Origin: Candidatus Obscuribacter phosphatis
GTDB taxonomy: Bacteria; Cyanobacteriota; Vampirovibrionia; Obscuribacterales; Obscuribacteraceae
Assembly: GCA_001899315.1 (NCBI GenBank)
Contig: MOYA01000004.1
Coordinates: 54,477-118,476 of the forward strand
Length of the DNA: 64,000 nucleotides
Reading direction: 5' to 3'
In this document: positions 19,087 to 47,291 of the stretch, piece by piece
Layout of the letters: each line of letters begins with the position of its first letter
Numbering within the stretch: the stretch's first letter is position 1
The notes under the pieces: generated by a model
What the model was told of the DNA's origin: nothing
What the model saw: the letters and a program-made list of their open reading frames with translations, nothing else
Databases searched by the model: none
Translations under genes and position numbers: made by a program

Positions 19087-19144
19087 AGGTGGACGGCGAT
19101 GTTGGCTTTAACTACTCTTGAAGAGAAGCTCCTAAGCTTTCAGC

Positions 19145-21841
19145 TTAGCTTCGCGCTCCGACCAATCCGGTCAGAACACTCTCACTGAGATTCTTCTCTT
19201 CACGCTCACGCAGTTTGACATTGATGTCGAGCTGCTCGAGCGCTTGAGCCACAGCCATTTCGCCTGATTTGACAGGGTGCGCGGCAAAGAAAGATCTGAC
19301 ATCTTTGGCTAGTTCCGGCTTGTCGAGTGACGACACAGCCGAAACCATTCTGACCACTCCGTTTTCGGGATAGCGGTCCACCATGGTCTGCCAATTTTCT
19401 TTCAAAAACCGCCAGGCGTCGCTGCCTGCCTCTTCGTTGCTCATGAGGGCAGCGAAGAGGTAGGGAGCGTCTTGGGTGCGCACATCGTCGCTCAAACAAG
19501 CATCGATGGTGCGCTTCAACAGGGCTTTGTCACGGAAGCGCGCCAAAGCGAACAAGAAGCGCTGCACTTCTTGCGGCGAAGTAGCAGCTTTTGAGAGGGC
19601 GAGGAAATTATCGTAAGCCTTGCCTTCACCATGATAGGCAGTGATGGAAACCACTGCCGGCACTAGGTCGGCATCTAACGTGGCTCTGTCTTTGCACCAG
19701 CTCTCGAATAGTTGCATACCTTTCTGGGACAGATCTTTGTCTTCGCCGATGGTGCCCAAGGTAGAGAGCAAGGTGCTTCTCAGCTGCTTGGTCTGCACAG
19801 TCTCAGCCGAGCCCTGGGCAGCATGCAGACCGAGCTTATCAAAAGCCGGTCTAGCTAGTTTTCTGATTAGCCTGGCCATACTAGCCCGCGCTTCAGAGCC
19901 CACCGCAGTGAGACTATTGAGGTGTCCCAGGGAAGCAAGAACGATAGCCCAGACGTTGGGGTCGTTTTCGCTTTCGAAGACCTGGATGAGATTGAGGTAG
20001 TCGGAGGCAGGCAATATACCGGCTCTTACACAAGCCCAGGCATCGTTGACCAGGTTGAATCTCTCAATGCTGGAGAGTTTATCGCCGGGTCCGCCGTTCT
20101 TTGTAAGCAGCGAGGTCAGCTGTCTGTCATAGGTGACCCGGTAAAATCCGGAGCCGCCTGCATTAAGCACTACCCAAACCGCTTCGCCGCCAAGTTCCAC
20201 ATCCTTTGATTTCTCTTCCATGAGAATGCGTTTCTCGATCAGCTTGCCGTCTTTGAGCAAAGCCCGCAGACTAAGCGGAATCGGCCAGGTTGTCTCTTCT
20301 TTATTTGCTGAACCAGCTTGAGCAGTCTGGCTTTGCTTAAGGAACTTGAAGGGCGACTGCTTGAGAGCGAGCTTGCTGACGGTCTCACCGGTGCCCGCGG
20401 CAGATGCTTCCACCACTGGATGTCCAGGAGTGAAGACCCATCTATCCATGATTAAGCGCACCGGTTCGGCTTCTTTCAGACCTTCATGGCGGGCTTTGTT
20501 CTGACAGGCTTCTTCGAGAGCATCCCACAAATCGTGGGTCTCGGTGTTGCCATAACTGTGTTTCTTCAGATAGGCAGCAATGCCCTTTCTGAAGGTTTCA
20601 GCACCGATGAACTCGTGAATCTGGTAGAGAACCGAGCAGCCCTTCTCATAAGAAATGACATCGAACATTTCAGCTGCTTCATCGGGATGATTGACCGGAC
20701 ATTCGATCGGGTGGGTGCTGTTGAGAGCATCCACTCTGGAGGCAGCGGCACGGGAGAGACCGAAATCATTCCAAATCTCCCACTCGGGCTTCCATTTTGA
20801 TAGACAGAGATTTTCCATAAAGGTGGCGAAACTCTCGTTCAACCAGAGTCCATTCCACCAACCCATGGTGACAAGGTCGCCGAACCACATGTGGGCCAGT
20901 TCGTGCATGACCACTTCAGCAACGCGCTTGCGTTCAGCGTGGGTAGCATGAGCTTCGTCCAATAGAAGCGCGGTTTCACGATAGGTGATTAGACCGAGGT
21001 TCTCCATTGCTCCCGAGGCGAAGTCGGGTATGGCGATATGGTCAATTTTCTTGCCGCCCGGATAGGGAATCTCGAAATATTTCTCGTAATAGTCGATGGC
21101 AAAAGCCGAGACATCGAGCGCAAAGGAAGTCAGCTTTTCTTTGCCGGGCACCGACCAGATGCGCACTTCGATGCCGTTTACATCGATGGGCTTGCTTGAG
21201 ACGAAGTTGCCGACGCAGAAGCACACCAAATAAGTGGACATCTTCATGGTGCGCTCATAGGTGATGGTCTTCTTGCCACCGGGCGCAGGCTCGGTCTTCA
21301 CGACGGCTCCGTTAGACAAAGCCGTCAACTTTTCATCGACCGTGAGGCGCACATCGAAAGTGGCTTTGAAAGCCGGTTCGTCAAAGCAAGGAAAGGCGCG
21401 CCTAGCATCGGTAGACTCAAACTGAGTAGTGGCGATTGGCTGCTTTTCGCCTTTCTCGTCAACCCAGAAGGAGCGGTAGAAGCCCTTGAGCTTGTCGTTG
21501 AGTGTGCCTTTGAAGCTGGACTTGAGGGTCCATTTACCGGCTGCCAGTGTTTCTGCAAACTGCAGGGTGGCTATCTCGGTTTCTTCGCAGACAGTGACTT
21601 TTGCTTTGTGCTCTTGGCCGCCTGCTTGAATGGCAACAAAACTTTCTATCTCAAGCTCTTTGGCGTTGATGGCGATGCGATTTGTGGCTTGTTCGAGTTC
21701 AATCTCGATTGCTACTTCGCCATCAAAAACAAACTTTGCCAAGTCGGGGGTCAAGTGAATGTCGTAGTGACTTGGTTTGACGAAACCATCCAGTCTGAAG
21801 CCGGTTTCTTTGCCGACTGAGCCGTTGCCTGTGTGCATCAT
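19145..21841 (-). CDS. pepN: M1 family aminopeptidase N (moderate-GC copy)
   Basis: GAGGTAA SD. GAMENLGLITYR, HELAHMWFGD-x-WLNESFA. Collinear with the neighbouring copy (KGFYRS.W.DE.G, IATTQFE.TDARRAFPCFDEP). Confidence 0.9.
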   Translation of the reverse strand: MMHTGNGSVGKETGFRLDGFVKPSHYDIHLTPDLAKFVFDGEVAIEIELEQATNRIAINAKELEIESFVAIQAGGQEHKAKVTVCEETEIATLQFAETLAAGKWTLKSSFKGTLNDKLKGFYRSFWVDEKGEKQPIATTQFESTDARRAFPCFDEPAFKATFDVRLTVDEKLTALSNGAVVKTEPAPGGKKTITYERTMKMSTYLVCFCVGNFVSSKPIDVNGIEVRIWSVPGKEKLTSFALDVSAFAIDYYEKYFEIPYPGGKKIDHIAIPDFASGAMENLGLITYRETALLLDEAHATHAERKRVAEVVMHELAHMWFGDLVTMGWWNGLWLNESFATFMENLCLSKWKPEWEIWNDFGLSRAAASRVDALNSTHPIECPVNHPDEAAEMFDVISYEKGCSVLYQIHEFIGAETFRKGIAAYLKKHSYGNTETHDLWDALEEACQNKARHEGLKEAEPVRLIMDRWVFTPGHPVVEASAAGTGETVSKLALKQSPFKFLKQSQTAQAGSANKEETTWPIPLSLRALLKDGKLIEKRILMEEKSKDVELGGEAVWVVLNAGGSGFYRVTYDRQLTSLLTKNGGPGDKLSSIERFNLVNDAWACVRAGILPASDYLNLIQVFESENDPNVWAIVLASLGHLNSLTAVGSEARASMARLIRKLARPAFDKLGLHAAQGSAETVQTKQLRSTLLSTLGTIGEDKDLSQKGMQLFESWCKDRATLDADLVPAVVSITAYHGEGKAYDNFLALSKAATSPQEVQRFLFALARFRDKALLKRTIDACLSDDVRTQDAPYLFAALMSNEEAGSDAWRFLKENWQTMVDRYPENGVVRMVSAVSSLDKPELAKDVRSFFAAHPVKSGEMAVAQALEQLDINVKLREREEKNLSESVLTGLVGARS

Positions 21842-22573
21842 CGCTTACCTCAATTTCTTCCGAAAGCCGAAAGAGATTTTGGCAGAAAATGAGCTTTGAA
21901 TAATGAGATGGTTTAGGATTCGACAACCTAATGTCACAACAATTTATAGCCAAGCGGCGCGCCTGTTTGTCTCTATCTAGATGAAGCGGCTTACCTATAG
22001 AGAATAAACGAAAATTCCGAAGATTTTTCGCGCAAAGAACATGAGTACCTGATCTCTAGCCCATTTCTTCTATTTGAGGCAAGAATGTCAAGATATGAAT
22101 ATACTCACAAAAGTGAGCTCTTATATTTTGAGACACTTTCATTCAGTTTTCGGCGACCTGATTTTTCAGCCGGCAAAGCAAACAGCGCAGGCAGGCCAAG
22201 TTGCGCTAACCACGTAATTTGTGCCTCTTGGCATCTAGATCTTGAATATATTTCAGTTATCTATCTGCATCTTGAATTCCTATCTGGTTATTTCTTAGTC
22301 TCACGGCGCGTTTAGTCTTCTTTTCTTCGGATACCAATACAAGCTTTTTCTCATAAGCTCTGTCACCACTTCGAACCATAGCCACCACCTGCAGTGCGGG
22401 TCGTGGTGAGCACCTGCTTGCCAGGGGTGTGTTCGCAGCGGACCGAAGACTGAACTGAACGTTTTTCTGCTTCATCAACCAACCGTCGAAAGACTGCCGC
22501 CGGTACCAAAGCAATTCCGCTTGGACTTGAGGCCGCAGTTAACTTCGCCGGAATAAACAAAAAGGAAAGTACC

Positions 22574-23593
22574 ATGACCAAGCGTACCCTGGACGGCTTC
22601 ATCCCGTCCGACCTGCTGCACGACATCGCGCGGCTCAACCCGAACGCCTCGCTGTCCTTCATCGCCACCATCCTCGAAACCCAGAAGATCGCTCAGGCTG
22701 CTGCCTCCGGCCGCATCCCCTACCGCTTCGCCGCCGGCAAGGCCGAGCGCCAGATCTACGACGCCAAGAACACGACGCGCCTGCCCGGCACCCGTGCTCG
22801 CTTCGAAGGCGACAAGGCCACCGGCGACAAGACCACCGACAATGCCTACGACTACCACGGCGGCATGCGCGACTTCCTCAAGCAGGAATTCGGCTGGAAC
22901 TCCATCGACGGCAACGGCATGAACCTGGTGGGCACCGTCCACTACGGTCGCAACTACAACAACGCCTTCTGGAACGGCTCCAGCATGACCTACGGCGACG
23001 GCGACGGTGTCATCTTCGTCACCTTCGTCACCGCCAACGTGGTCGGCCACGAGCTGGCGCACGGCGTCACCGAGCACACCTCGGGTCTGGACTACTACGG
23101 CGAGTCCGGCGCGCTGAACGAGAGCTTCTCCGACGTCATGGGCGCCTGCTACGAGCAGTGGCTCAACAAGGAGACGGTCGACAAGGCGCACTGGCTGATC
23201 GGCAAGGGCATCTTCGGCCCGACCATCAAGGGCGTCGCCCTGCGTTCGATGATCGCCCCGGGCACCGCCTACAACGATCCGAAGCTGGGCAAGGACCCGC
23301 AGCCCGACCACTACAGCAAGCTCTACCGCGGCTCGGGCGACAACGGCGGCGTGCACATCAACAGCGGCATCCCGAACAAGGCCTTCGCCCTGTTCGCCAA
23401 CGCCGTGGGTGGCCACTCCTGGAAGGAGCCGGCGCACATCTGGTGGGAGTCGAACTGCGGCACCAACCGCGTCACCGGCCGCGCCAGCATCGCCGACTTC
23501 GCCCGCAAGACGGTCGAGAACTGCAACACCATGGCGCCCGCTCTCGTGGCCAAGCTGAAGAAGGCCTGGGACGACGTGGGCATCAAGGTCTAA
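22574..23593 (+). CDS. M4 (thermolysin-family) metalloprotease, protealysin-like short form
   Basis: VVGHELAHGVTEHTSGL (HExxH) and GALNESFSDVMG (third zinc ligand). No signal peptide. Short N-terminal segment GFIPSDLLHDIARLN. Confidence 0.85.
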   Translation: MTKRTLDGFIPSDLLHDIARLNPNASLSFIATILETQKIAQAAASGRIPYRFAAGKAERQIYDAKNTTRLPGTRARFEGDKATGDKTTDNAYDYHGGMRDFLKQEFGWNSIDGNGMNLVGTVHYGRNYNNAFWNGSSMTYGDGDGVIFVTFVTANVVGHELAHGVTEHTSGLDYYGESGALNESFSDVMGACYEQWLNKETVDKAHWLIGKGIFGPTIKGVALRSMIAPGTAYNDPKLGKDPQPDHYSKLYRGSGDNGGVHINSGIPNKAFALFANAVGGHSWKEPAHIWWESNCGTNRVTGRASIADFARKTVENCNTMAPALVAKLKKAWDDVGIKV

Positions 23594-23848
23594 GCCGTCT
23601 CTTCGGACCGCAAGACCGGAAGTTCGGAGCCTAAAACCGCACTTCAAACAGCATCTCTTTAGATGCACTCGCTGGGCGGGACGGTCAGAACTAATGATGT
23701 GACAGCACATCGGTTCGGCCGCTTCCGCCCGGCGATTTTTGTATGGACCCGACAACCGCCGTGGCGCTGAATCTACCGCGGCGGTTGGCGGCCCCTCAAC
23801 TTATCGATCACCCATCGGTATCGGTATAACGAACCAAGGGAACAAACA

Positions 23849-26065
23849 ATGTCTCCATCCAAAATGGCCATGAAGCTGATGCGTTCATGGAAACTTCTAC
23901 CGGAGATCTCCGCCACCGAGCGCCAGGCGCTGGAGGCCGGTGATGTCTGGATCGACGGCGATATCTTCGCCGGTAAGCTGCGCTTCAAGCAGGTGCTCGC
24001 CAACCCCTATGGCGGGCTGACCAAGGAAGAGCAGGAATTCATCGATGGTCCCTGTCAGGAACTCTGTGCCATGGTCGACCCGTGGCAGGCCTACCTGACC
24101 CGTCGCATCCCCGACGACGCCATGGCCTACCTCAAGGCACAGGGCTTCATGGGTCTGATGATTCCCAAGGAGTGGGGCGGCAAGGGCTTCTCGCGCCTGG
24201 CCATCTCCACCATCATGGGCAAGCTCATGCCCCACTGCAGCCAGGTGGCCACCGTGGTCATCATCGCCAACAGCCTGAGCGCCGCCGAACTGCTCATCCA
24301 CTACGGCACCCCCGAGCAGAAGAAGCACTACCTGCCCCGTCTGGCCGACGGCACCTATGTGCCCTGCTTCGGTCTGACCGAGCTCACCGCCGGCAGCGAC
24401 GCCGAGAGCATCAAGGCCACCGCCCATGCCTTCCGCGACAGCGACGGCAGCATCAAGCTGCGCTGCAACTTCGAGAAGCGCTACATGACGCTCGGCTCGA
24501 TCGCCAACATCGCCACGGTGGCCTGCAAGGTGATCGACCCCGACAATCTGCTCGGCAAGGGCGAGAACGTCGGCATCACCACCATCCTGGTGCACAAGGG
24601 CACGCCGGGCTTCTACAACGGTGACCACCACATGCCCATCGGCGGCGGCTTCGAAAACGGCCCCCTGATCGGCAAAGACGTGGTCGTCGGTCTCGACAAC
24701 ATCATCGGCGGCGCCGAATGCGCTGGTCGCGGCTGGCGCATGCTCATGGAGCAGCTGGCAGGCGGCCGCGGCATCTCGCTGCCGGCTGGTGCCATCGGCG
24801 GCATGAAGATGGCCACCACGGCCACCGGTGCCTATTCCATGGTGCGCAGCCAGTTCGGCCTGGCCATCGGCAAGATGCAGGGCGTGGAAGAGCGTGTCGG
24901 TCGCATGGCGGCCCTCACCTATCTCTTCGAAGCCTCGCGCGTCTTCCTTTGCACCGCCATCGACAACAACATCAACCCGCCGGTGACGTCGGGCATGCTC
25001 AAGGCCTACAGCACCGACTGGTCGGCGCGCGTGGTCGGCGACGGCATGGATGTCTTCAGCGGCGCCGGCGTCATGCAGGGTCCGAACAACATCCTCGGCC
25101 TGCTCTACCAGTCCATCCCGGTGGGCATCACGGTGGAAGGCGCCAACATCATGACCCGCACCTTCCTGGTGAACGGTCAGGGTGCGGTGCGCTGCCACCC
25201 CTACTCCCAGCGCATGGTCGAAGCCGTCGAGAAGGACGACCCCCGTCTCTTCCGCAACACCCTCTTCGGCTGGGTCGGTCACGTGGTCCTGGGCGCGCTG
25301 CGCACTGGTGTGCACAGCGTCACCCGCGGCCATCTGATCAGCGTGCCCAAGGTGGCACCGCAGACCAAGACCTACTACCGCCGTCTGGGCTGGGCTGCCG
25401 CTCGTTTCGGTCTGCTCACCGACCTGGGGCTTCTGCTGGTCGGCGGCAACCTCAAGAAGGAAGGTCGCCTGAACGGTCGCTATGCCGACGCCTTCGCCTG
25501 GATCACTCTGGGCGTGGCTGCTCTGCGTCGCTTCGAAGCAGAAGGCCGGCGTCCCGAAGACCTGCCCTTGGTGCAGGCCAGCGTGGAATTCGCCCTGAAC
25601 GAGGTGCAGAAGGCCTTCGAAGGCATCTACGCCAATTCCCGCATGCCGGTGGTGGGCTTCTTCATGCGCACCCTCGGTCTCTTCGGCCTGCGCATCAACC
25701 CGCTTTCGCTGGGCACCAGCGACAAGCATTCGCACGGTGCGGCGCGTGCCATCCAGAACTTCGACGAGCAGTTCCTGCGTCTCAGCGAGGGTGTCTACAT
25801 CCCCGCCGAAGACAAGCCGGCGCTCGGTCGTCTGGTCAAGGCTTTCCGCCTCAAGAGCGAAGCCGCCAGCCTCTTCGACAAGATTTCCGCCGCCCAGAAG
25901 CGCAAGCAGCTGCCCCGCGGCGGCGCCGACTTCGCGCTGGTGAGCGAGGCCCAGGCAAGCGGTGTTCTCACCGCCGCCGAAGCCCAGCAGGTCAAGGAAG
26001 CGCTCGCCGCTTGCCTGACTGCCTGCGAAGTGGACGTCTTCAAGGACGAGCACTACTACCGCTGA
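23849..26065 (+). CDS. fadE: large acyl-CoA dehydrogenase, FadE type
   Basis: Collinear by eye with E. coli FadE after its TM region: EAGDVWIDGDIF, LTKEEQEFIDGP, IPKEWGGKGFS, HYGTPEQKKHYLPRLADG, CFGLTELTAGSDA. Confidence 0.85.
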   Translation: MSPSKMAMKLMRSWKLLPEISATERQALEAGDVWIDGDIFAGKLRFKQVLANPYGGLTKEEQEFIDGPCQELCAMVDPWQAYLTRRIPDDAMAYLKAQGFMGLMIPKEWGGKGFSRLAISTIMGKLMPHCSQVATVVIIANSLSAAELLIHYGTPEQKKHYLPRLADGTYVPCFGLTELTAGSDAESIKATAHAFRDSDGSIKLRCNFEKRYMTLGSIANIATVACKVIDPDNLLGKGENVGITTILVHKGTPGFYNGDHHMPIGGGFENGPLIGKDVVVGLDNIIGGAECAGRGWRMLMEQLAGGRGISLPAGAIGGMKMATTATGAYSMVRSQFGLAIGKMQGVEERVGRMAALTYLFEASRVFLCTAIDNNINPPVTSGMLKAYSTDWSARVVGDGMDVFSGAGVMQGPNNILGLLYQSIPVGITVEGANIMTRTFLVNGQGAVRCHPYSQRMVEAVEKDDPRLFRNTLFGWVGHVVLGALRTGVHSVTRGHLISVPKVAPQTKTYYRRLGWAAARFGLLTDLGLLLVGGNLKKEGRLNGRYADAFAWITLGVAALRRFEAEGRRPEDLPLVQASVEFALNEVQKAFEGIYANSRMPVVGFFMRTLGLFGLRINPLSLGTSDKHSHGAARAIQNFDEQFLRLSEGVYIPAEDKPALGRLVKAFRLKSEAASLFDKISAAQKRKQLPRGGADFALVSEAQASGVLTAAEAQQVKEALAACLTACEVDVFKDEHYYR

Positions 26066-26134
26066 CGCGGGTTTTGTGAACCTGAACAACCGCTGACGCG
26101 GGTTTCTGAACAACCGCTAGGCGGGTTTCTGAAA
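26058..26134 (+). repeat. three direct repeats of about 24 bp, ACCGCT(G/-)A(C/G)GCGGGTTT(C/T)TGAA
   Basis: Copy 1 overlaps the fadE stop codon. Copies at about 26058, 26088 and 26112. Confidence 0.7.
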
Positions 26135-26138
26135 GAGC

Positions 26139-26171
26139 GCGGCCGAGAGCAATCTCGGTCGCGTTTTCTTT
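26139..26171 (+). terminator. rho-independent terminator
   Basis: Stem GCGGCCGAGA / TCTCGGTCGC (one mismatch), loop GCAA, then GTTTTCTTT. Confidence 0.65.
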
Positions 26172-26210
26172 CGCCTCCATTGAGTCAAACAACTAGAAAA
26201 GGAGCCTTTT

Positions 26211-28445
26211 ATGGCAAAATCCAATGCCTCTACTCCTGTGATCGTTCTCAACCTCGGTGAAACCGGCGACAAGGGCGACGACCGTCGTCCCCATGGTCAC
26301 AAGGGCGGCTGCCGTCCCCATGTGGTCATCTGCCCCGGCTATGGCGCCGAGAATTTCCCCTTCCCCAACGAGGAGACCCTCGTGGTGCGTGCCTTGGCCC
26401 GCATCAAGAAGAAGCAGGCTGCGGCTCGCGCCGCTCGCGCTTCTCGCACGGAAGATGTCGGCACCGGTATCGACAACGGTATCGACAACGAGGACCTCAA
26501 CCACCCTTTCGGCGAAGGAGGTGACCACGGCAGCGACCATGATGACCACGGTTGCGCCACCTCCCCCCACTGCCAGGGCCGGCATCCCGAGATGGAGTTG
26601 ACCGACGACGAAGTCGGCGATTCCGGGCTGCTGCGCACCTATGTTCCGGGCAGCCCCACCCTGGGCCGCATCCCCGCCAAGCGCCCGGCCGGCATCATCC
26701 CGCAGCTCGAGAAGGCTCGTGAAGCCGCTGTCGACGCCACTCTTCTGGTGGCCGCCGGTGGTCTGCGCGAACTGCTCGAAGACGGCAAGTATGACGCCAT
26801 CGTGGCCGAGCGCTTCGATGAGCAGGCCGACAAGGTGAGCTGGGCCCGTGAGAACATGGACCCCAAGTACCTGCCGGCCATCGACAGCCTGGAAGGGCAG
26901 CTGAACAAGCTGCGCCGGGTCTATCTGGCTGCGCTGCCTCGCACCCTCGACGGTCTGCGCGCCCAGAACCCCGGCACGCCCGAGTACCGGCTGCTCGATG
27001 CCGCCATCGAAGTGCTGGACGAAGAGCTGACGCCTATCATCAACGTCCTGCGTATCTGGACGGACGCTTTCGGCCAGCAGCGCAGCGGCAAGTACAAGGA
27101 GCTGGACGCCGTCGTCTTCTCGGTCGAGCAGGCGCACCACCTCTTCGAAGGCAATGTGGACGCCAGCTCCATGAGCGCCGAGACCAAGAACCGCCTCAAG
27201 ACCCGCGTCTACGGCGTGGGCAATGTCTATGTGGCGCGTTTCTCGGGCGAAGGTCCGGCCACGCTGCCCGGCACTCGCGGTCCCATCGGTGCTCATGCCA
27301 TCGAAGTGCCGCACGACGAGCGCAACATCATCACGCTCATGCTCATCCTCTACATGCACGAGTTCCGTCACGACATCTTCCACGACGTGGAAGGTCTCGG
27401 CGACGAGCTCAGCGCCGTGGTGGCCAAGGCGGTGCTCGATGCCCACGAAAAGGGCGAGCTGAAGCTGAGCAAGAACGCAGTCAAGATCGGAAAGCAGCAG
27501 GTGCCTCTGGCCAACCTCCTGGTCAAGCTCTTCGTCGACACCATCGGCGAAGTGGACGCGGACATTTCGGGCGGCGTGCTGCTCGGCGGTCCGGCCTACC
27601 TGTACAACATGCTCTCCACGTTCTCGGCCTTCAACTCGAAGCGCAAGAACATCTTCAACACGCCCAAGCTGCTGCGCACCGAGTCGTTCTACGAACTGAG
27701 CCAGGTGGGCAACGGTCAGGTCTCCCTCACCTTCCTGCCGCATCCGCCGGACTACATCCGCGCCTACATCGTTGCCGCCGCTCTCGACGAGATCGGCTTC
27801 AGCAAGGAAGCGCGTCAGTGCCGTGCACTCGCCGATCAGGGCGTCGGTTTCGACAACATTCCGGAGTACATCTCCTGGAAGTCGACCGAAGGCAAGAAGG
27901 AGCACCCCGAGATTCAGATCCCGGTGGCCGACATCAAGGCAGTCGCACCCATCGTGGCGCGCGCCCTGATTCGCACGCCGCTCAAGAGCCTCGGTGGTGC
28001 CAGCACCATCGACATCATCAACTGGACTCCCGAGCGCGAAGCCAAGGCACAGCTCCTGGCTCAGATGCTCATGGAAGGCAAGTCGGAGCTGCCCACCGAC
28101 AAGGGTGACATGCACGTCACCTACGTCATCTCGGCAGCGACGCTGGCTTACTGGGGTCTCTGCAAGTCGGGCTATCAGCCTCGCAAGGCAGCCGCCATTG
28201 TCGAGGACAACGCCCTGAAGATGATCGACCAGGTGCGCGACCGCTTCGACAAGGAGATGGCGCGCCTCAAGGCGGAAGCGGCGGAGCAGGCCGAACTGGC
28301 TGCCGATGCCGCTGCCTCCGGCGAAGCCAATCCCAATGGCGAAGCCAATCCCGCCGAAGGTGCAGCCGCCTCGGTCGAGAGCGGTGAAACCGTCGACGAG
28401 GACGCTGGCCCTGAATCCGGGGGCGGTGAAGGCACCGGCAGCTGA
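26211..28445 (+). CDS. orphan 744-aa protein with HExxH zincin motif
   Basis: AAGGAG SD. LILYMHEFRHDIFHD (H383-E-x-x-H387) and GEVDADISGG with E447 60 residues later. His/Asp-rich N-terminal patch; Ala/Glu-rich C-terminus. No signal peptide. Confidence 0.7.
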   Translation: MAKSNASTPVIVLNLGETGDKGDDRRPHGHKGGCRPHVVICPGYGAENFPFPNEETLVVRALARIKKKQAAARAARASRTEDVGTGIDNGIDNEDLNHPFGEGGDHGSDHDDHGCATSPHCQGRHPEMELTDDEVGDSGLLRTYVPGSPTLGRIPAKRPAGIIPQLEKAREAAVDATLLVAAGGLRELLEDGKYDAIVAERFDEQADKVSWARENMDPKYLPAIDSLEGQLNKLRRVYLAALPRTLDGLRAQNPGTPEYRLLDAAIEVLDEELTPIINVLRIWTDAFGQQRSGKYKELDAVVFSVEQAHHLFEGNVDASSMSAETKNRLKTRVYGVGNVYVARFSGEGPATLPGTRGPIGAHAIEVPHDERNIITLMLILYMHEFRHDIFHDVEGLGDELSAVVAKAVLDAHEKGELKLSKNAVKIGKQQVPLANLLVKLFVDTIGEVDADISGGVLLGGPAYLYNMLSTFSAFNSKRKNIFNTPKLLRTESFYELSQVGNGQVSLTFLPHPPDYIRAYIVAAALDEIGFSKEARQCRALADQGVGFDNIPEYISWKSTEGKKEHPEIQIPVADIKAVAPIVARALIRTPLKSLGGASTIDIINWTPEREAKAQLLAQMLMEGKSELPTDKGDMHVTYVISAATLAYWGLCKSGYQPRKAAAIVEDNALKMIDQVRDRFDKEMARLKAEAAEQAELAADAAASGEANPNGEANPAEGAAASVESGETVDEDAGPESGGGEGTGS

Positions 28446-28570
28446 ATCGCCGACCTTAACCGAAGCCACCGGAAGAGCAGCTGCAGCTAAAGGTCGCAAC
28501 CTGAGACGCCCTGCTCACTGACAGACAAACACGCTGGGTGGAAGACTTCTTCCGCCCGGCAGTAGCCACC

Positions 28571-28608
28571 GCGAGTGGTGCAGCGAAATTAATTGCTGCA
28601 CCACTCGC
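28571..28608. repeat. perfect 14-bp inverted repeat
   Basis: GCGAGTGGTGCAGC - 10 nt - GCTGCACCACTCGC, located where GC content drops. Confidence 0.8.
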
Positions 28609-28634
28609 CATTTCCACATAAGGACAGGTGTTCC

Positions 28635-30032
28635 ATGAAAGAGAATAAGTGGAAGAACTTCAAACCCAGATACGTTTGGGGCGGATTGATCGTCCTTCTC
28701 GGTCTGGGCATACTTGTCTCGAACCTGCTCGGCTTCGTCGCCGGCGGCGGTTCCAGCAAGCTTCCCGACCAGACTTTTTCATCCAAACCAGGTACAACGG
28801 TATATCTGAAGGCACCGAAATCCGGCGAAACAGTGCGTATCGTGCGCACCGACTCATCGGGTTCGACGCGCACCTACATGCGCATCGAATACAAAGACGG
28901 TCGCTCCGCAGTGGTTTCCTTCTCGAACAACAAGGTCTCCACTTACCGAGAGTACTATGCTCCCACGAAGGAGGAGCTGCTCAAAATCCAAGAGCAAGCC
29001 AAGAATGCCACCCCCGGTGTCAACTCGGCAGCTCAGTCGAATCCCACAGCTGAAGCCACTGACGCCGATCTGCCCCTTCGCAGACTGGCTCGCATCGTCG
29101 AACTGGCCAAGGACGGCAAAACCGTCAACGCTGAATACACCTATTTCGCCAACGGACGACTGAAAGAAGTCACCGTTCTCTCCGCCCTGGGCGACCTGGT
29201 GAGCACTACCTATTTCGAAAACGGAACTGGTATCGAGCGCATCGGCGTCTATGCCAAGGACCAGAACGGCGCTCTCGTATCAGAACAGGTCTTTGCCATC
29301 GGAGGTCGTCTGGTCGAGAGAGTCAGTGTCTCTGGCTATAACGGACTTCAGCGCGATTTCTTCGACGCCAACGGCATTCGTTACCGTTCGATCACCTACG
29401 GCTCCTGGACGTCGGAAATCACCGACTACACAGCCGATGGCAAGTCGAAAAAGATGGTCACGGCCTACGGCTATTCCGACGTCTCGGTCACCACCTATGA
29501 CGAAAAAACCGGTAAAGCACTAATGGAGAAAAGCTATCCAAATCAGAGCGATGCCGTCATCGTCCGCTACTTCGACCAGAGCAACAGCCCGAACAACTAC
29601 GGCGCCAGAGCCTTGGTGCAGCAGCGTTGGGTCAAGCTCGACAAAGCGATTCCCCAAGACCAGGTTGGTGTTGTCTCCGACGGCTACGTGCTGGATTCCA
29701 TCACCGAGTTCTATGAAGGCACTTACAACACCAAGCGTGAGCTGACCTTCTACCCCGGCGGCAAAGTGGTCAAATCGGCCGAAATCCGCAAACCGGCTTC
29801 CAGCTGGGGCACCTTTACTCGGCGCTCCTATCGTCTAGACGGTACGCTGGAAAAGGTGGAGGAAGTCGAATATAACCGCGTCAAGAGCCAGCAGCTTGTA
29901 ACCGGCGACAAGACTACCAGCGAAAGTCTGGACGGCCTGATCAAAGCTGTTTCCATTCTGCCGATTCTGACCAAGAACGGACCCGATAGTCCGGTTCGAA
30001 GCTCTAAAGCCCTCGAACTGAAGTTGGACTAA
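28635..30032 (+). CDS. membrane-anchored repeat protein (MORN-variant/YwqK-like beta-hairpin repeats?)
   Basis: ORF 28593..30032 trimmed to ATG 28635. TM helix YVWGGLIVLLGLGILVSNLLGFV. Recurrent Y(F)xNG..-type repeats (YFANGRLKEVTV, YFENGTGIERIGVY, FFDANGIRYRSITY). Confidence 0.55.
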   Translation: MKENKWKNFKPRYVWGGLIVLLGLGILVSNLLGFVAGGGSSKLPDQTFSSKPGTTVYLKAPKSGETVRIVRTDSSGSTRTYMRIEYKDGRSAVVSFSNNKVSTYREYYAPTKEELLKIQEQAKNATPGVNSAAQSNPTAEATDADLPLRRLARIVELAKDGKTVNAEYTYFANGRLKEVTVLSALGDLVSTTYFENGTGIERIGVYAKDQNGALVSEQVFAIGGRLVERVSVSGYNGLQRDFFDANGIRYRSITYGSWTSEITDYTADGKSKKMVTAYGYSDVSVTTYDEKTGKALMEKSYPNQSDAVIVRYFDQSNSPNNYGARALVQQRWVKLDKAIPQDQVGVVSDGYVLDSITEFYEGTYNTKRELTFYPGGKVVKSAEIRKPASSWGTFTRRSYRLDGTLEKVEEVEYNRVKSQQLVTGDKTTSESLDGLIKAVSILPILTKNGPDSPVRSSKALELKLD

Positions 30033-30806: not shown

Positions 30807-32132
30807 TCAGCGTTTCATGCATATAGAAAGCACTGTTCCCGTCCTCAGCTTACGCATTCTGTCAGAACCCACATAACCTCGAGCCAGACAACTCGCAAAA
30901 ACATAACCCCTAACCTCGGACCTCTCAGATGGACCTTGAAGTTTAGAAGAGAATTGCGGGCAAGAAGAGAAGAAATTGCTGCCAATAATCGGACGAGGCA
31001 AAACAAACTGCGTTGAATTAGCAATGATGTGCATCAAGCCGCTGTATACGTAGAGATACTTTCTACTAATACGTCGACAATAATCTACGAGCAGCTCCAT
31101 AAACTCAAAGCAAGCCTTCTCAAGATTCTCTCGACTTTCACTTTGTACTCTTCCTGAACAAAGAGAACTTTGACACTTTGGCTTGCCGATAGCTATAGAG
31201 CAATCTGCTAAGCCTGATGAGTCAGAATTTCCGCCGTCTGGCTCCGCAACCCTGATCTTGAGTTTGCATCCCGGAAGAGACTCTATCAATCCATAAATTT
31301 GAAGCATGGCTATAGTTGAGTTAACTTCTGCAGTTGAGACATCCAGTTTGGCGCAAATCGAATCAATTTCATCACATCCGTTAGCAATAACAGCTAGCAC
31401 TTTAGATTCGAGTTCCGAAAGGTTTTCGCCAGAAGATGACTGATGAGGTTCAATCTGACTTGGGTGTCCAGTAATATTGGAAACACTAACGGCCGAGCTA
31501 GAAGCAGGCGCCTCACTAAAGTCGTGAACTTCAAATTCAACATCGACAGACTCTTCTTGACTCTCACAATTGGAGCGCTGCTCGTATAAGCGTTCGGCAT
31601 TTTCTTCATAGCAAGGATGCAGCCACATTGGTGAAGCAAGGCTTCTTTTGGCAAAAACAAAACTGAAGTGCGATGAGCTAAACTCCTTACATTCGCTGCA
31701 CTTAGCTGCCGCAGCTGCGTCAAGAATTGAGCGAGTTAAATTCAGGGCGGAAGAGTACGCAAGGCCAGTCAAAGCGCACAAGAAACTAGAATTGACTATA
31801 ACTCCATGTTCGTACAACCAAATGGCTGAAAACCAGGCTCTTATATTCCTTACGCGCTCGAAAAATGTACCAGCAGTCAGGCTCATGCGTCTTTTACAAA
31901 TCAAGCATTTGAACTCTCTAGAACCTTCTTGAATCTCAATTTGGTCCGAAAGACAAAGACGACAATATAAAAAACCACCACTAGTCAAGCTATCAATCAA
32001 GTCTCTCCAGCAAGTCTCAGGGTCTGGATAGACTTCATAGAAGGAACGCCACACACTACCTACATATTCTATTTTGTCTCTAGAATCGCATCGTTTGGCT
32101 ATCTCAACTAAGCCTTCTTCTAGTGGTCTCAC
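30807..32132 (-). CDS. IS1595-transposase-derived protein lacking DDE core; Zn ribbon plus DprA-like winged helix (paralogue A)
   Basis: ORF 30807..32270 trimmed to GTG 32132 (AAGGAGG 7 nt upstream). CRLC...CLIC..SLTAGTFFERVRNIRAWFSAIW..LTGLAYSSALNLTRSIL; central acidic linker plus LSELESKVLAVIANGCDEIDSICAKLDVSTAEVNSTIAMLQIYGLIESLPG; C-terminal RRISRKYLYVYSG. Confidence 0.7.
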   Translation of the reverse strand: MRPLEEGLVEIAKRCDSRDKIEYVGSVWRSFYEVYPDPETCWRDLIDSLTSGGFLYCRLCLSDQIEIQEGSREFKCLICKRRMSLTAGTFFERVRNIRAWFSAIWLYEHGVIVNSSFLCALTGLAYSSALNLTRSILDAAAAAKCSECKEFSSSHFSFVFAKRSLASPMWLHPCYEENAERLYEQRSNCESQEESVDVEFEVHDFSEAPASSSAVSVSNITGHPSQIEPHQSSSGENLSELESKVLAVIANGCDEIDSICAKLDVSTAEVNSTIAMLQIYGLIESLPGCKLKIRVAEPDGGNSDSSGLADCSIAIGKPKCQSSLCSGRVQSESRENLEKACFEFMELLVDYCRRISRKYLYVYSGLMHIIANSTQFVLPRPIIGSNFFSSCPQFSSKLQGPSERSEVRGYVFASCLARGYVGSDRMRKLRTGTVLSICMKR

Positions 32133-32208
32133 TTGATCGTCCTCCTTACTCCTATAAGTAAGAACGTAATTTCGAGAGAAAAAGTTCAAAAGATTGAGAT
32201 AAATTCTG

Positions 32209-32228
32209 AAAAACCGATATCGGTTATT
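32209..32228. promoter_or_regulatory. 20-bp palindrome copy 3 (AAAAACCGATATCGGTTATT, one mismatch)
   Basis: 77 nt upstream of the paralogue A start. It lies inside the spurious N-terminal extension of the raw ORF. Confidence 0.7.
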
Positions 32229-32640
32229 CCGAAAATCAAGAAACCAAAAAACAAAATTCTTTTGGTCCAAGGCAAACCAGATTTCATTAAATCTGCTTGA
32301 CAGCGTGCCAGCTATTCAGTAGTCTTGCCTTGAGACATTTGTCTCGTTTTGCAGGAATCACTTACCAAACCTACCAATCCAATCATCTTCATGCTTAAGT
32401 GCTTGATGGTGTGTTCCCTCGGCTGATAATGATAAGGCTCCTAGCTTTTGCTGGATCTATCAAATAGGCAGGCAACACCCCTTTCAACTCATTCAGCATA
32501 GTACCCAGCCTCTCAAAAACTTGAGGCATTGACGATAGCACTTGCACAGTTGTCAATTGCTTCTACCGGAAAAATATTGGGTATGAACTGACTTAGTTGA
32601 AAACAGGCATCTTAAGGTGCAGAATTGCCAGGAGAATGTC

Positions 32641-33849
32641 ATGAACTTAGTCAAGAAACAGCGCGAGAACCGCTATCGACTGGGAGAGCTTTTTCTAGAA
32701 ACTGGTCTAGTGGACGGTTCAGCAATTTCTGAAGGACTTTCGATTTCTAAGAGAACATCCTTTCCCATAGGACGCGTTCTCGTAATGACAGGATGGCTGG
32801 ATGATCATGATGTGAATTGCGCCTTGGAACTGCAAAATCTTCTCAGAGAAGGCACCATAGACAATCGTCTCGCCGCTGACCTGCTCAGATTCTGCCACCT
32901 CAACAAAGTAGACATAAATGAATCCTTCAGACTTAACGGCATTACAAGCTCCGGAGAATCTCCTCAAAGTAGACTAGGCAGGCTTTTCTTTGCTGCCGGA
33001 ATCGTTGATGAGAACCAACTAGCACAAGCTGGTCGAGAAGCTCAGCGGCACGACATGACGCTAGGAAGCGCGCTTCTCATGCTCCGCTTCGTATCTCAAA
33101 AGACACTCGAAGGTGCACTCAATTTACAGGTGATGCTCAGAGATGGCAAAGTCACCTTCCCCGAAGCTCTTGCATTTTGCAAAGAAATGCACGAGCGTCA
33201 AGTTAGCCTCAGAGAGGTACTAGGTGATAACGGCAAACTCGTTCGTTCTAACAGTGCCGCTCCAAGAATCGGAGAGTTCCTAGTTGCTGCGCAGTTAGTT
33301 AAGAATACTGAAGTTCTTACTGCTTGCGAAATCGGCACAGAGGAAGATAACAACATTGGCAGAGTCCTACTAAGCAGAGGACAACTTTCAGAATTGGTTT
33401 TGGAAGCTGCTCTCAAGCTCCAGAATATGATGCAGTCGAGAGTCTTTACATACAGAAGGGCGGTTAAGCTTCTCAGACTCGTCTATAAGCTAGGTGCACC
33501 GCTAGAACAAATAATTGAAGAATCGCAAGCCCTTGATGATGTTTTCAAACTACTAAGAAGAGCCGCAATAGTCCCTGAGAAGATTGTGCGAGATGTTGCC
33601 TGCGAAATTGTTGACTTTGAAGACACCGTCGCCGAAGCCCTCCTCTCAAGGGGATATATCAATCCTATTCATGCTCGCATAGGTCTAGCCTGCTTAGAGC
33701 GCATCAGAAATGGAGAAATATGTGAAGACAAGGCAGCATTTCTCATCTACCACTGCTGCAACAAACCCGGACAAGAAATGGAAATGTTTAGCCGCATTAA
33801 TTGGTCAGAACTTCGCCGCCTGCAGCTCAGACAGGACTTACTAGTATAG
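32641..33849 (+). CDS. protein of three tandem T2SSE_N/MshEN-like modules
   Basis: ORF 32617..33849 trimmed to ATG 32641 (AGGAG SD). Three modules of about 90 aa, each built as 24-aa motif, 5-aa spacer, 24-aa motif (details in findings). Confidence 0.7.
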   Translation: MNLVKKQRENRYRLGELFLETGLVDGSAISEGLSISKRTSFPIGRVLVMTGWLDDHDVNCALELQNLLREGTIDNRLAADLLRFCHLNKVDINESFRLNGITSSGESPQSRLGRLFFAAGIVDENQLAQAGREAQRHDMTLGSALLMLRFVSQKTLEGALNLQVMLRDGKVTFPEALAFCKEMHERQVSLREVLGDNGKLVRSNSAAPRIGEFLVAAQLVKNTEVLTACEIGTEEDNNIGRVLLSRGQLSELVLEAALKLQNMMQSRVFTYRRAVKLLRLVYKLGAPLEQIIEESQALDDVFKLLRRAAIVPEKIVRDVACEIVDFEDTVAEALLSRGYINPIHARIGLACLERIRNGEICEDKAAFLIYHCCNKPGQEMEMFSRINWSELRRLQLRQDLLV

Positions 33850-40923: not shown

Positions 40924-42927
40924 ATGCCCCTCCAAGACTCCTTTAGTAAAAAGTCTGATAAACCGGACCAGGCGCAAGTGAAATCGCCGCGCCCGGCTAA
41001 GTGGCCGCGCGTGCCCACACTTGAAGACTTGGAGTTCAGTTTTCAAAGAGCGAAAGACAGCCCTGGTATTCCGGCAGCCATGTCTTGGAAAAGGACAGAG
41101 TCTTCCAGTTTTGTCCTTTCGGTGACTTGGGAGACCGGAGGAAAAGGCGGCGAAGCTACCTGGCTTTTGACAGCGGAAGAAATGGGCGACAACGTGGTGC
41201 TGTGGAGCTTCCGCAGCCGCGATGCAGCGGTTATTCATAAGCTGATGGAAGAAGCCATTCAGGCTCTTGACCCTTCCAATCAGCCGGAAGAAGACGAGAA
41301 CCAGATGTACGGACAGGTTACCGTCAAGCCCGGCACCAAGATAGACCATTACGAGATCGTCGAAGAGATAGGTAGCGGCGGCATGGGGGTCGTTTATCGC
41401 GGCCGCGACGATATGTTCGACCGACCAGTAGCCATCAAAGTTCTGCATTCCAAGCTGCTCAGTGACCCACTCTCCAAGAAACGCTTTGAACAAGAGGGAA
41501 GAGCCACTATCGCCCTCGCTCATCCTAACCTAATTTCGGTCTATCACTATGGTTTCTCGTCGGGCGGCTTGCCCTTTATCGTCATGGAATATGTTGACGG
41601 CAAAGGTCTGGACAAAATGTTAGAGCAGGTAGGCCACTTGGAATTCGCCGAATTTGTCGAGATTTTCTTGCAAGCTTGCGACGCCCTCGGTCATGCGCAC
41701 GAAAGGGGCATCATTCACCGCGACCTCAAGCCCAGTAACCTGATGCTTGTCAATGTCGGCAAGAAAGAAAAACTGGTCAAAATCGTAGACTTCGGCATCT
41801 CAAAAATATTGCCCCATGGGCGCTTTCCTGGACAGGACCTGACCAATGCCGGGGATGTGGTGGGCAGCCCTCTCTACATGAGCCCAGAGCAGTGCAAAGG
41901 ACTTTCTTTAGATGGTCGGTCCGACATTTATTCTCTGGGTTGCCTGATGTACCAGGCTGCTACCGGCTCGCTGCCCTTTCTCGGCGAAAACGCACTACAG
42001 ACTTTGAGTAAGCATATTTGCGATCCGCCACCCAAATTCAAAGATATTGCCCCAGATCTCAAAATTCCGCCAGACCTTGAACGCATAATCTTCAAGACCA
42101 TGGAAAAAGAGCCGGAGAAGCGCTATGAAAGCGTAGCCGAGCTGCACGCCGATCTGGAAGCGATTTTGCCCAAGGGCAAGGGTCTCAGCCTGACCACCAC
42201 TACCCTCTCCAAGGTAGCTTCGACAGCCACAGCCGGTTCTGTGCATATTCTTGTTGAAACGGAAGAATTGCCCAGAGCCACTCTAGAGGCTGCTGTGCAA
42301 ATTCAAAAAATGCTCCGGGAAGGCACGATGACCCTGGCGGAAGCAGCCAGCGCCTTGAATCGCGCCCACGTCAACGGCGGACAAATCGACATCGATACAC
42401 TCGGCAAAACCAGAGAACATGCTTCATCCCTGGTGGTAGACACACCTCTTGAAGCGGTACTGGTAGAAGCAGGTCTAATTTCCAACGCCGTCTGGCGCAC
42501 CCTTTTGCAATTGCAGGCAGCCATGCGCAGCGGTGAGATGAGCAAAGAAGAAGCTGTACAGGAATTCAGAAAAAGACATGCCAAGGTACAGCCGAAAATA
42601 ACCAAACTTGCCGAAGCGGCTAAAGAGAAACCGCAGATGAGCATTCCCACAAGCCCGGTGGAAATGCTGAAACAAGCAGGCATGATTAGCGAAGAAGACC
42701 TGGAAAAAGCTAAAAAAGAGGCTGCCGATAAAGGCACCAAACTGGAGAAAGTATTGGTAGCCATGGGTAAAATCGACACCAAAACAGTGCTGGCCAGCTA
42801 TCAATGCATGACCCTGCTATCAAATAAAAAACTGAAATTAGAACAAGCGATAATAGCGCTCAACTACTGCGCCCGCATGCGTGTTGATTTTTCAGAAGCC
42901 GTACAAGAGTTAGGCTGGGATATTTAA
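40924..42927 (+). CDS. Ser/Thr protein kinase with C-terminal MshEN/T2SSE_N-like modules
   Basis: GSGGMGVVYRG, VAIKVL, HRDLKPSNLM, DFGISK, SPEQ. About 130-aa N-terminal extension; the C-terminal 230 aa are related to the 32641 protein. Confidence 0.9.
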   Translation: MPLQDSFSKKSDKPDQAQVKSPRPAKWPRVPTLEDLEFSFQRAKDSPGIPAAMSWKRTESSSFVLSVTWETGGKGGEATWLLTAEEMGDNVVLWSFRSRDAAVIHKLMEEAIQALDPSNQPEEDENQMYGQVTVKPGTKIDHYEIVEEIGSGGMGVVYRGRDDMFDRPVAIKVLHSKLLSDPLSKKRFEQEGRATIALAHPNLISVYHYGFSSGGLPFIVMEYVDGKGLDKMLEQVGHLEFAEFVEIFLQACDALGHAHERGIIHRDLKPSNLMLVNVGKKEKLVKIVDFGISKILPHGRFPGQDLTNAGDVVGSPLYMSPEQCKGLSLDGRSDIYSLGCLMYQAATGSLPFLGENALQTLSKHICDPPPKFKDIAPDLKIPPDLERIIFKTMEKEPEKRYESVAELHADLEAILPKGKGLSLTTTTLSKVASTATAGSVHILVETEELPRATLEAAVQIQKMLREGTMTLAEAASALNRAHVNGGQIDIDTLGKTREHASSLVVDTPLEAVLVEAGLISNAVWRTLLQLQAAMRSGEMSKEEAVQEFRKRHAKVQPKITKLAEAAKEKPQMSIPTSPVEMLKQAGMISEEDLEKAKKEAADKGTKLEKVLVAMGKIDTKTVLASYQCMTLLSNKKLKLEQAIIALNYCARMRVDFSEAVQELGWDI

Positions 42928-46728: not shown

Positions 46729-46873
46729 ATGCGAACTTTCCGGTCGGTCCAGCCCGGGGGTACCGGGCTTTCCGACTCTCTTTCAATAGTTTCAGATAAG
46801 TGCTCCGAATGAAGGGTTAGGAACGTACGGCTCTTTAGCCGTATGGAAAGTGAGAATTAGCCCGAGCCAAAGC

Positions 46874-47290
46874 TCAGACTTTCACAGCCTTTTTGTTCAC
46901 CAGCTTCGGTCCCTCCACGAGCTTCAAAACCGGGCAGCGACCGGCGGTGCGCTCCATGGCGGTGAGGTCGGCGGCGCTGAGATTACCGCTGGCCTCGATG
47001 AGCTCTTCGATGAGAGGGATCTTCTTGGTGGCGTCATTGGGATCGGCCACCTCGCTGTAGGTGACCTTGACGCTCAGAGTCTGGATGTCCCAGTTACGGC
47101 TCTTTGCCACCATCATCAGTGTCTGCACGGTGCAGCTACCGATTGCGGCGAGCAAAAGCTCTTTGGGAGTCGGACCCAGGGATGTGCCGCCCACCGACTT
47201 ATCCTGGTCGGCAATGACAGTGAAGGCGCCGGCGCTGATGTCCACCTTGTAGGTGTGCCCGGCTGCCAGAGTGCATGTGGCTTGCGTCAT
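46874..47290 (-). CDS. OsmC/Ohr-family peroxiredoxin-like protein
   Basis: GGTSLGPTPKELLLAAIGSCT ... TAGRCPV (two conserved Cys contexts). The start abuts the PPK2 stop. Confidence 0.8.
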   Translation of the reverse strand: MTQATCTLAAGHTYKVDISAGAFTVIADQDKSVGGTSLGPTPKELLLAAIGSCTVQTLMMVAKSRNWDIQTLSVKVTYSEVADPNDATKKIPLIEELIEASGNLSAADLTAMERTAGRCPVLKLVEGPKLVNKKAVKV

Positions 47291-47291
47291 A

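Follow-up and report, generated by a model that had tools for sequence, protein, structure and literature searches.

The MshEN_N receptor module for cyclic di-GMP (c-di-GMP) and a class of stand-alone proteins built from it are already known, having been catalogued in 2016. In V. cholerae MshE (5HTL), the module is a four-helix bundle of 53 residues, composed of two 24-residue motifs joined by a 5-residue spacer (24-5-24), and is accompanied by an alpha/beta C-terminal subdomain and an ATPase. T. thermophilus PilF carries three consecutive complete GSPII domains of ~140 aa, fused to a hexameric traffic ATPase; the three show graded conservation, with both motif Gln present in the binding domains and one domain (A) being without binding. 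A single module forms part of the C-terminal region of E. coli NfrB, a c-di-GMP-activated membrane glycosyltransferase, and Cyanothece sp. ATCC 51142 cce_1044 appears in a published catalogue with the stand-alone architecture (MshEN_N)2 (Wang et al. 2016, Supplementary Table 4, PMC5013675). Here we analyse a protein of 402 aa encoded in a 64,000-nucleotide stretch of Candidatus Obscuribacter phosphatis DNA (contig MOYA01000004.1, positions 54,477 to 118,476; the whole stretch is called the window), which a first-pass annotation, made from the letters alone, had described as a stand-alone protein of three MshEN-like modules. Profile searches and a predicted structure support a stand-alone, MshEN_N-only protein with no other recognisable domain, and the best functional reading of these data is that of a putative multivalent nucleotide sensor or adaptor.

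A stand-alone array of MshEN_N-type units

Homology of the array protein to the c-di-GMP-binding four-helix bundle of MshEN_N is close to certain. The curated NCBIfam model NF053729 ('cyclic di-GMP-binding domain-containing protein, MshE-related'; cutoff 38 bits) matched it with 76.5 bits (E = 9.8e-22) in three stretches, the best of which covered the entire model (1-53/53). Weaker profile matches were obtained to the c-di-GMP-binding regions of NfrB-family glycosyltransferases and EpsG, the MshEN region of E. coli NfrB being the closest match after NF053729, and a phmmer search of PDB sequences returned PilF GSPII-B as best match (E = 2e-4), with MshE at E = 8e-3. The AlphaFold (AF2) model was all-helical, with a mean predicted local distance difference test score (pLDDT) of 83 and a predicted TM-score (pTM) of 0.61. 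Local Foldseek matches of this model in the PDB included, as the best one, c-di-GMP-bound PilF GSPII-B (8pdk_B/8pfa_B; probability 0.99, root-mean-square deviation (rmsd) 1.3-1.4 A over 53 columns, 34-36% identity) and MshE 5HTL (5htl_B; probability 0.99, rmsd 6.7 A over 70 columns); their E-values were poor (2-3) because the aligned stretch is short. The superposition that the first-pass annotation had suggested as a check was thus obtained locally for both proteins, and its proposal of an MshEN-like identity was supported by the three NF053729 matches together with this structural likeness.

A second suggested check, a search with Pfam T2SSE_N (PF05157), came out negative, with no match even at E <= 10. 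We take PF05157 to model the whole MshEN/GSPII domain including the alpha/beta subdomain, which would explain the miss, and since NF053729 matches, the miss does not refute the homology. In the solved MshEN structure, the GSPII domain includes an alpha/beta C-terminal subdomain (PMC12002112); this subdomain, three helices around a mixed beta-sheet, is absent from our model, in which no strand is predicted. Pfam, NCBIfam and PADLOC showed no other domain in the protein, in agreement with the annotated absence of an ATPase or other output domain. Likewise, no fusion to or operon with an ATPase of a type II secretion system (T2SS) or type IV pilus was found when the protein was compared with Pfam and NCBIfam, and ~30 open reading frames (ORFs) of the window with Pfam.

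The internal repeat is far beyond chance. The three 24-5-24 modules quoted in the first-pass annotation lie at aa 13-65, 111-163 and 209-261 with exact spacing, and their module-to-module period is exactly 98 aa. Smith-Waterman scores between the 98-aa units 1-3 amounted to 83-100, as compared to a shuffle mean of ~25 (z = 11.7-16.8), with none of 300 shuffles reaching the observed unit-unit score, and the module cores share 16-17/53 identical residues in register. The count of three holds for the intact modules, but a decayed fourth module (aa 300-352) had been overlooked, so that the array comprises four units. Module 4 has lost both motif Gly and the trailing Gln and gives no NF053729 match on its own. 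It aligns with the intact fourth module of distant family members, scoring 15 bits on a module hidden Markov model (HMM) of the family versus 57-60 bits in these relatives. Similarly, the element (L/M)(L/M)R(E/D)G(T/K), said to follow every module, is present after modules 1 and 2, but reads MMQSRV in module 3 and RIRNGE in module 4. This element represents the end of helix 4 and the turn into two more helices; the model therefore has six helices per unit, two beyond the four-helix bundle, which had also gone unnoticed. As modelled, the gene product is a soluble, cytoplasmic, all-helical protein of four ~98-aa units, each comprising an MshEN_N-type bundle and two helices. Its features are as follows.

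32630..32635 (+): Shine-Dalgarno-like AGGAGA, 5 nt before the ATG (direct sequence reading)
32641..33849 (+): complete ORF, 402 aa plus stop; soluble, pI 6.4, without transmembrane-grade segment
32641..32676 (+): N-terminal basic leader MNLVKKQRENRY (K5, K6, R8, R11) before module 1 (sequence)
32677..32835 (+): module 1, aa 13-65, RLGELFLETGLVDGSAISEGLSIS-KRTSF-PIGRVLVMTGWLDDHDVNCALELQ; NF053729 32.7 bits
32836..32970 (+): unit 1 extension, aa 66-110; end of helix 4 (NLLREG), helices 5-6, linker
32971..33129 (+): module 2, aa 111-163, RLGRLFFAAGIVDENQLAQAGREA-QRHDM-TLGSALLMLRFVSQKTLEGALNLQ; NF053729 36.1 bits
33130..33264 (+): unit 2 extension, aa 164-208; VMLRDG, helices 5-6, linker (model helices 153-167, 173-186, 190-196)
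33265..33423 (+): module 3, aa 209-261, RIGEFLVAAQLVKNTEVLTACEIG-TEEDN-NIGRVLLSRGQLSELVLEAALKLQ; NF053729 26.0 bits
33424..33537 (+): unit 3 extension, aa 262-299 (model helices 271-284, 288-307)
33538..33696 (+): degenerate module 4, aa 300-352, DVFKLLRRAAIVPEKIVRDVACEI-VDFED-TVAEALLSRGYINPIHARIGLACL (alignment with distant relatives)
33697..33846 (+): C-terminal helices and tail, aa 353-402, ending ...RINWSELRRLQLRQDLLV (helices 362-373, 379-384, 388-393, 396-401)

In unit 1, the model helices span residues 55-69, 75-88 and 92-98, and residues 76-99, which match 8/11 positions of the relaxed binding motif described below, may constitute a degenerate third hairpin. The tail of the protein ends ...RRLQLRQDLLV, and the RINW and DLL of the C-terminal region are kept in close orthologs.

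Compared to MshE, the array protein has the same 53-residue 24-5-24 unit and four-helix bundle. It also shares an h-G dipeptide where helices 1 and 3 begin, a turn Gly, hydrophobic clusters at positions 2, 17 and 21, and a motif II that ends in Gln. It differs in lacking both the alpha/beta subdomain and the ATPase, in having the module fourfold with two extra helices per bundle, and in its variant motif-I Gln and motif-II Arg. Its leader resembles the basic patch Lys5/Arg7/Lys8/Arg9 reported for MshE (PMC5013675); the alignment shows the leader to be kept in close orthologs, and pLDDT is low there (35). The graded series of consecutive modules recalls PilF, whose GSPII-C has Pro at motif-II position 1, as has module 1, and whose GSPII-B motif II reads LLGRILV versus PIGRVLV and NIGRVLL in the array protein. 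Unlike PilF, however, the array protein consists of N-subdomains only, repeated with a 98-aa period and standing alone. NfrB shows that the motif tolerates changes, as it has deviations from the consensus of its own and still binds; its Arg at motif-I position 24 can still reach the phosphate, whereas the array protein has a small residue there. The likeness to cce_1044 is by catalogued architecture only (MshEN_N modules, neither T2SSE_N1 subdomain nor output domain, cyanobacterial phylum), with two modules in cce_1044 versus three plus one. No protein named Cyanothece was among the matches to the window protein or to its relative from a metagenome-assembled genome (MAG) labelled Planktothrix, and a link to photosynthetic cyanobacteria or cce_1044 was not established, the named relatives of the Planktothrix-MAG protein being mostly from Obscuribacterales-type or unclassified cyanobacterial MAGs. 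New with respect to the described systems are the four-unit array with its fixed ~98-aa period and six-helix unit, the systematic and conserved variant of the binding motif, and the large, wholly unannotated, Obscuribacterales-centred paralog family with disordered tails and a terminal peptide.

Binding motif, family conservation and candidate mechanism

To compare the modules, we used the strict consensus, RLGxx(L/V/I)(L/V/I)xxG(L/V/I)(L/V/I)xxxxLxxxLxxQ for both motifs, and the relaxed motif published by Wang et al., which has 11 constrained positions. Module 1 matched the relaxed motif at 11/11 + 11/11 positions, with both Leu (hydrophobic) clusters intact, and was the sole module satisfying both halves; the others scored 9-10/11 per half (module 2, 9/11 + 9/11; module 3, 9/11 + 10/11). 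The Gln of motif I is replaced by Ser, Ala and Gly in modules 1-3, and module 3 has Gln at motif-I position 10, as in the proven binder NfrB. An asymmetry pointed out in the first-pass annotation, with the leading Arg in motif I only and the trailing Gln in motif II only, holds across the family. On the strength of these motifs, module 1 is most likely the best candidate ligand site, module 3 is intermediate, and module 4, judged by its losses, cannot bind by the MshE/PilF mode.

We then tabulated the contact positions across the family, using the module HMM built from it and ~30 distinct sequences per module. In module 1, all 30/30 sequences have both motif Gly, Pro at motif-II position 1, and Ala or Ser, never Gln, at motif-I position 24; Arg occupies motif-II position 4 in 29/30. 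The trailing Gln at motif-II position 24 is present in 29/30, 31/33 and 24/30 sequences for modules 1, 2 and 3. Given these fixed counts at the positions of module 1, the departure from the canonical motif is a fixed family signature rather than decay. Column entropies, from sequences that are phylogenetically related, were as follows.

Module 1: contact 0.84, core/turn 1.21, other 1.90
Module 2: contact 1.33, core/turn 1.56, other 2.11
Module 3: contact 1.56, core/turn 1.76, other 2.13
Module 4: contact 1.81, core/turn 1.28, other 1.95

In modules 1-3, the ligand-contact columns are thus more conserved than the fold-core columns, whereas in module 4 the core is kept and the contact columns drift like background. 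At the level of sequence, this is the pattern that retained ligand binding in modules 1-3 predicts, and the contrast of intact with decayed modules provides a natural experiment on the positions that binding depends on.

Taking motif, conservation and model together, the balance tips slightly towards binding of c-di-GMP by at least one module, and we consider the full reading, a c-di-GMP-dependent adaptor, to be evenly poised. In such a protein, every one of modules 1-3 would take up a single c-di-GMP monomer in extended form, as MshE and PilF do, up to three in all, with module 1 being filled first. Guanine O6/N7 would be read through backbone amides, those of the motif Gly and of the residue after it. 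The Leu/Ile/Val clusters would provide stacking for the bases, the leading residue of the motif (Arg in motif I, Pro in motif II) would cap a base, and the trailing motif-II Gln would contact the ribose-phosphate. Because the motif-I Gln is always Ala, Ser or Gly, leaving each site short of one of the two Gln clamps, the affinity is expected to be micromolar, not nanomolar. Occupancy would order the start of helix 1 (its first turn), as in PilF GSPII-B, and would alter inter-unit packing or exposed surfaces, so that the protein would serve as an adaptor for a partner. Contacts with this partner would most likely be made by the fourth unit, which is blind to the ligand, and by the conserved tail at the C-terminus.

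The paralog family and competing explanations

A word-indexed search yielded 26 relatives of the window protein, and an exhaustive profile search 4,133 representative clusters with E <= 1e-3, of which 549 had E <= 1e-30, with each of the top 150 profile matches covering ~370-390 profile positions, that is, the whole array. Two relatives are 100% identical (P0001, on a 754-kb contig) and 99% identical (L005). All named family members are called 'hypothetical protein'. Nearly all named sources are Obscuribacterales/Melainabacteria-type, a non-photosynthetic group of cyanobacteria, or unclassified MAGs, besides a few MAGs with photosynthetic labels (Leptolyngbya, Drouetiella, Planktothrix, Oculatellaceae), and several paralogs can occur per genome (P0013 and P0187 in REEB67; L014 and P0198 in OZ245871). 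A presumed tandem duplicate beside P0299 was rejected, the adjoining 397-aa gene being unrelated. Paralogs reach 110-134 bits on NF053729, above the window protein, and the window subfamily is therefore the more diverged branch of the family.

Many members are ~400 aa long, and many others, of 500-1,858 aa, carry the array N-terminally. The tails of the long members, in which no Pfam domain was found, are either Pro/Ala/Ser/Gln-rich low-complexity stretches of hundreds of residues or TPR-type C-termini; tailed long paralogs, all encoded outside the window, include P0048, P0060, P0093, P0187, P0198 and ~120 other long relatives. Most low-complexity tails end with the conserved peptide [KR][KR][KR]LxDL[IVM]P (variants KKRLIDFMPKFGQH and KGLNAFMPKGKK), which looks like a short docking motif. 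Array-only, disordered-tail and TPR-type forms together constitute one Obscuribacterales-centred expansion. If the modules bind c-di-GMP, the family would rank among the leading candidates for a major class of c-di-GMP effectors in this lineage, made up of multivalent receptors coupled to disordered tails and docking peptides, not enzymes. A wider proposal, which we consider quite unlikely, is that the array is the sensor of an Obscuribacterales-specific signalling system, in which the array-only protein would be a multivalent, second-messenger-controlled adaptor, buffer or competitor, with a pocket perhaps tuned to another affinity or ligand, and in which the long paralogs would tether the array via the disordered tail to the docking peptide, or carry TPR-type ends.

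An MshEN_N-like module also occurs near the C-terminus of a 667-aa Ser/Thr protein kinase encoded 7 kb downstream (40924-42927 (+)). It comprises aa 580-623 (~42661-42792) and matches NF053729 at 33.5 bits (E = 2.7e-8) and the module HMM of the family at 31 bits; the REEB67 MAG has a 667-aa Pkinase gene at the same syntenic position. Kinase-MshEN fusions are a class catalogued in Wang et al. 2016 (PMC5013675).

Several points, from the motifs as well as from the genomes, weigh against c-di-GMP binding. None of the half-motifs fits the strict consensus (0/6, each with 7-9/11 constrained positions), and modules scanned singly remain below the NF053729 cutoff (32.7, 36.1 and 26.0 bits; E 4e-9 to 6e-6). 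The motif-I Gln is missing from every module of every family member examined, and the motif-II Arg of modules 1-3 is replaced by Pro, Thr and Asn, position 1 of motif II thus being Thr in module 2 and Asn in module 3. Module 2 has, moreover, lost one Leu-cluster position (motif-I position 21 is Gly; K/L/N/M in the family) and its motif-II turn Gly, which is Arg. PilF GSPII-A is a non-binder, and when its binding was resurrected in the N-terminal subdomain on its own, measurable binding required both Gln and the motif-II Arg, a Ser at motif-II position 1 eliminated it, and a Gly-to-Ala exchange cost ~10-fold (PMC12002112). In full-length GSPII-A, restoring the consensus was insufficient because structural context outside the motif, namely an N-capped, extended helix 1 and inter-subdomain contacts, also blocked binding (PMC12002112). 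As such cases illustrate, c-di-GMP binding is not readable from the motif alone. A protein-protein interface could also give a similar hydrophobic conservation of the contact residues.

On the genomic side, neither the window nor ~0.7 Mb of related loci, a small and redundant sample, yielded an intact GGDEF, EAL or HD-GYP gene, and no c-di-GMP riboswitch was found in 128 kb (the window and three loci). The ~30 window ORFs compared with Pfam included no GGDEF, EAL, HD-GYP, pilus or secretion gene. Outside the window, the 399-aa paralog P0314 lies 72 bp from a convergent gene for a 230-aa GGDEF-domain protein (L049 11272-11964 (-)), which is also present in L050, L055 and L056. This GGDEF protein has a degenerate catalytic motif (RYSAEQM) and keeps RDVD at the spacing of the RxxD inhibitory site, a receptor-type signature that points to a receptor for c-di-GMP and not to a cyclase. 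This gene pair was seen again only in assemblies whose proteins are 97-100% identical; because of this identity, the three assemblies amount to one observation, and we rejected the adjacency as independent support. Two GGDEF regular-expression candidates in the first locus set were rejected as wrong-frame junk, and a wider screen of this kind over the loci, a redundant sample, found nothing further. Our literature search found no publication on c-di-GMP or second-messenger signalling in Obscuribacterales, the only relevant statement being that Melainabacteria MEL.A1 encodes HD-GYP and no EAL domains. In the Obscuribacterales locus L049, positions 13300-13440 (-) match the Rfam small RNA 'poplar-1' over its full length (117.3 bits; gathering score 110.5).

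Most of the motif deviations nevertheless have a precedent in a proven binder. PilF GSPII-C, a lower-affinity site (324 nM; MshEN-like ~500 nM), has Pro at motif-II position 1, and GSPII-B, whose two leading positions are Lys and Leu, has an affinity of 6 nM; its single Gln-to-Glu mutants still bind at 0.46-0.95 uM, and only the double mutant is dead (PMC11731258). E. coli NfrB, whose motif PLGQILLENQVITEEQLDTALRNR-VEGL-RLGGSMLMQGLISAEQLAQALAEQ has a 4-residue spacer, carries Pro at motif-I position 1, Gln at position 10 (in place of the turn Gly) and Arg instead of Gln at position 24, and binds c-di-GMP with a dissociation constant of 1 uM (PMC8669469). The exceptions are the small residue at motif-I position 24 and the losses particular to module 2.

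These opposing observations bear directly on the possibility that the array is a ligand-independent scaffold, in which MshEN_N descendants without nucleotide binding provide rigid helical 'landing pads' for partners, a role proposed for the non-binding PilF GSPII-A. We regard this as possible, if doubtful. The motif-I Gln that is never present, the absent motif-II Arg, the failure of the strict motif in 6/6 cases and the sub-cutoff scores of single modules would all suit a scaffold, as would the fact that a domain nearer to the consensus than these modules is a non-binder (PMC12002112), the fusion of paralogs to protein-interaction elements (TPR ends, disordered tails with the peptide) rather than to enzymes, and the lack of c-di-GMP enzymes seen near the window gene. 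However, both motif Gly are invariant, and the solvent-facing Gln at motif-II position 24, for which hydrogen bonding to the ligand backbone is the sole described role, is kept in modules 1-3 and not in module 4. Contact columns, moreover, exceed the core in conservation exactly where the motif is intact, and most individual deviations are found in proven binders (NfrB; PMC11731258). The deviation is also systematic and conserved, as reflected by the Ala/Ser (30/30), Pro (30/30) and Arg (29/30) counts of module 1, which would fit an asymmetric motif shaped for another ligand, for example 3'3'-cyclic GMP-AMP (cGAMP) or linear pGpG; MshEN itself binds cGAMP weakly but detectably (PMC5013675). 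Such an altered specificity seems distinctly improbable to us, given that modules 1-3 have, in each half-site, kept the Gly-x backbone amides that read guanine O6/N7 and reject adenine (PMC5013675), that there are c-di-GMP binders with Pro at motif-II position 1 and others with a residue other than Gln at motif-I position 24 (PMC11731258; NfrB), and that we have no evidence here for cGAMP synthases in the lineage.

A chance likeness of a generic helical repeat (TPR-, PPR- or designed-toroid-like), or of a relative of the fumarase C C-terminal domain, is hardly credible and already effectively refuted by the profile and Foldseek results. Full-length Foldseek matches were indeed designed helical repeats and toroids, TALE, PPR, MTERF, TolC and fumarase, and phmmer also matched a designed toroid, but the Foldseek alignments had TM-scores of 0.09-0.2 and rmsd values of 13-35 A, and these matches were rejected. 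Pfam FumaraseC_C, precomputed also for many relatives, was likewise rejected, as its 25.6 bits fall short of the 32.5-bit cutoff and the match covers 39 residues with no lyase core. In contrast, the MshE-related profile matches at E = 1e-21, with full-length 1-53/53 alignments in register.

Gene context and further features of the window

The array gene most probably starts at the ATG at 32641, which has AGGAGA upstream; an alternative GTG start is possible at 32617. In alignment A1, all orthologs start at the residue aligned with this ATG, with P0004 adding a 15-residue N-terminal extension. The ORF is monocistronic, separated by a 370-bp divergent gap from an upstream 487-aa gene and by a 105-bp gap from its convergent neighbour serS. 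Large-scale gene order is common to the window and the REEB67 MAG, with different immediate neighbours, and the loci of distant relatives are unrelated to the window locus; comparing the immediate neighbours in the window, REEB67 and the distant-relative loci revealed no conserved operon partner. PADLOC gave no defence-system match for the array protein, and a defence-system assignment was rejected on this ground.

The divergent 487-aa neighbour (30807-32270 (-)) has a DprA-type winged helix as its sole Pfam match, together with Cys-rich stretches and weak CasR/CARF-associated winged-helix matches in PADLOC, and is not kept beside orthologs of the array gene. A DprA-type winged helix is also the only Pfam match of a 495-aa ORF at 57491-58978 (-).

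The base composition of the window is a mosaic, with blocks of 58-65% GC at 14000-20000, 22000-30000 and 46000-50000, which hold glutamate-synthase-like, M1 aminopeptidase, acyl-CoA dehydrogenase and CoaE genes as well as long spurious antisense ORFs; the sequence around them, including the array gene, has 43-49% GC. Two adjacent paralogous genes encode M1-family aminopeptidases of 966 aa (16117-19017 (-)) and 898 aa (19145-21841 (-)), both with Peptidase_M1_N, Peptidase_M1 and ERAP1_C. In an 891-aa ORF at 50553-53228 (-), the sole Pfam match is a retropepsin-like aspartyl protease (Asp_protease_2/gag-asp_proteas, aa 318-421), and a 299-aa ORF at 5474-6373 (+) has an AbiEi_4 antitoxin-type transcriptional regulator domain at 26.7 bits, barely above the cutoff. 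The window further contains a tRNA gene at 2158-2231 (+) (Rfam, 69.8 bits) and, at 59753-61396 (+), a 547-aa ORF combining N-terminal TPR repeats with a C-terminal DUF1266 domain.

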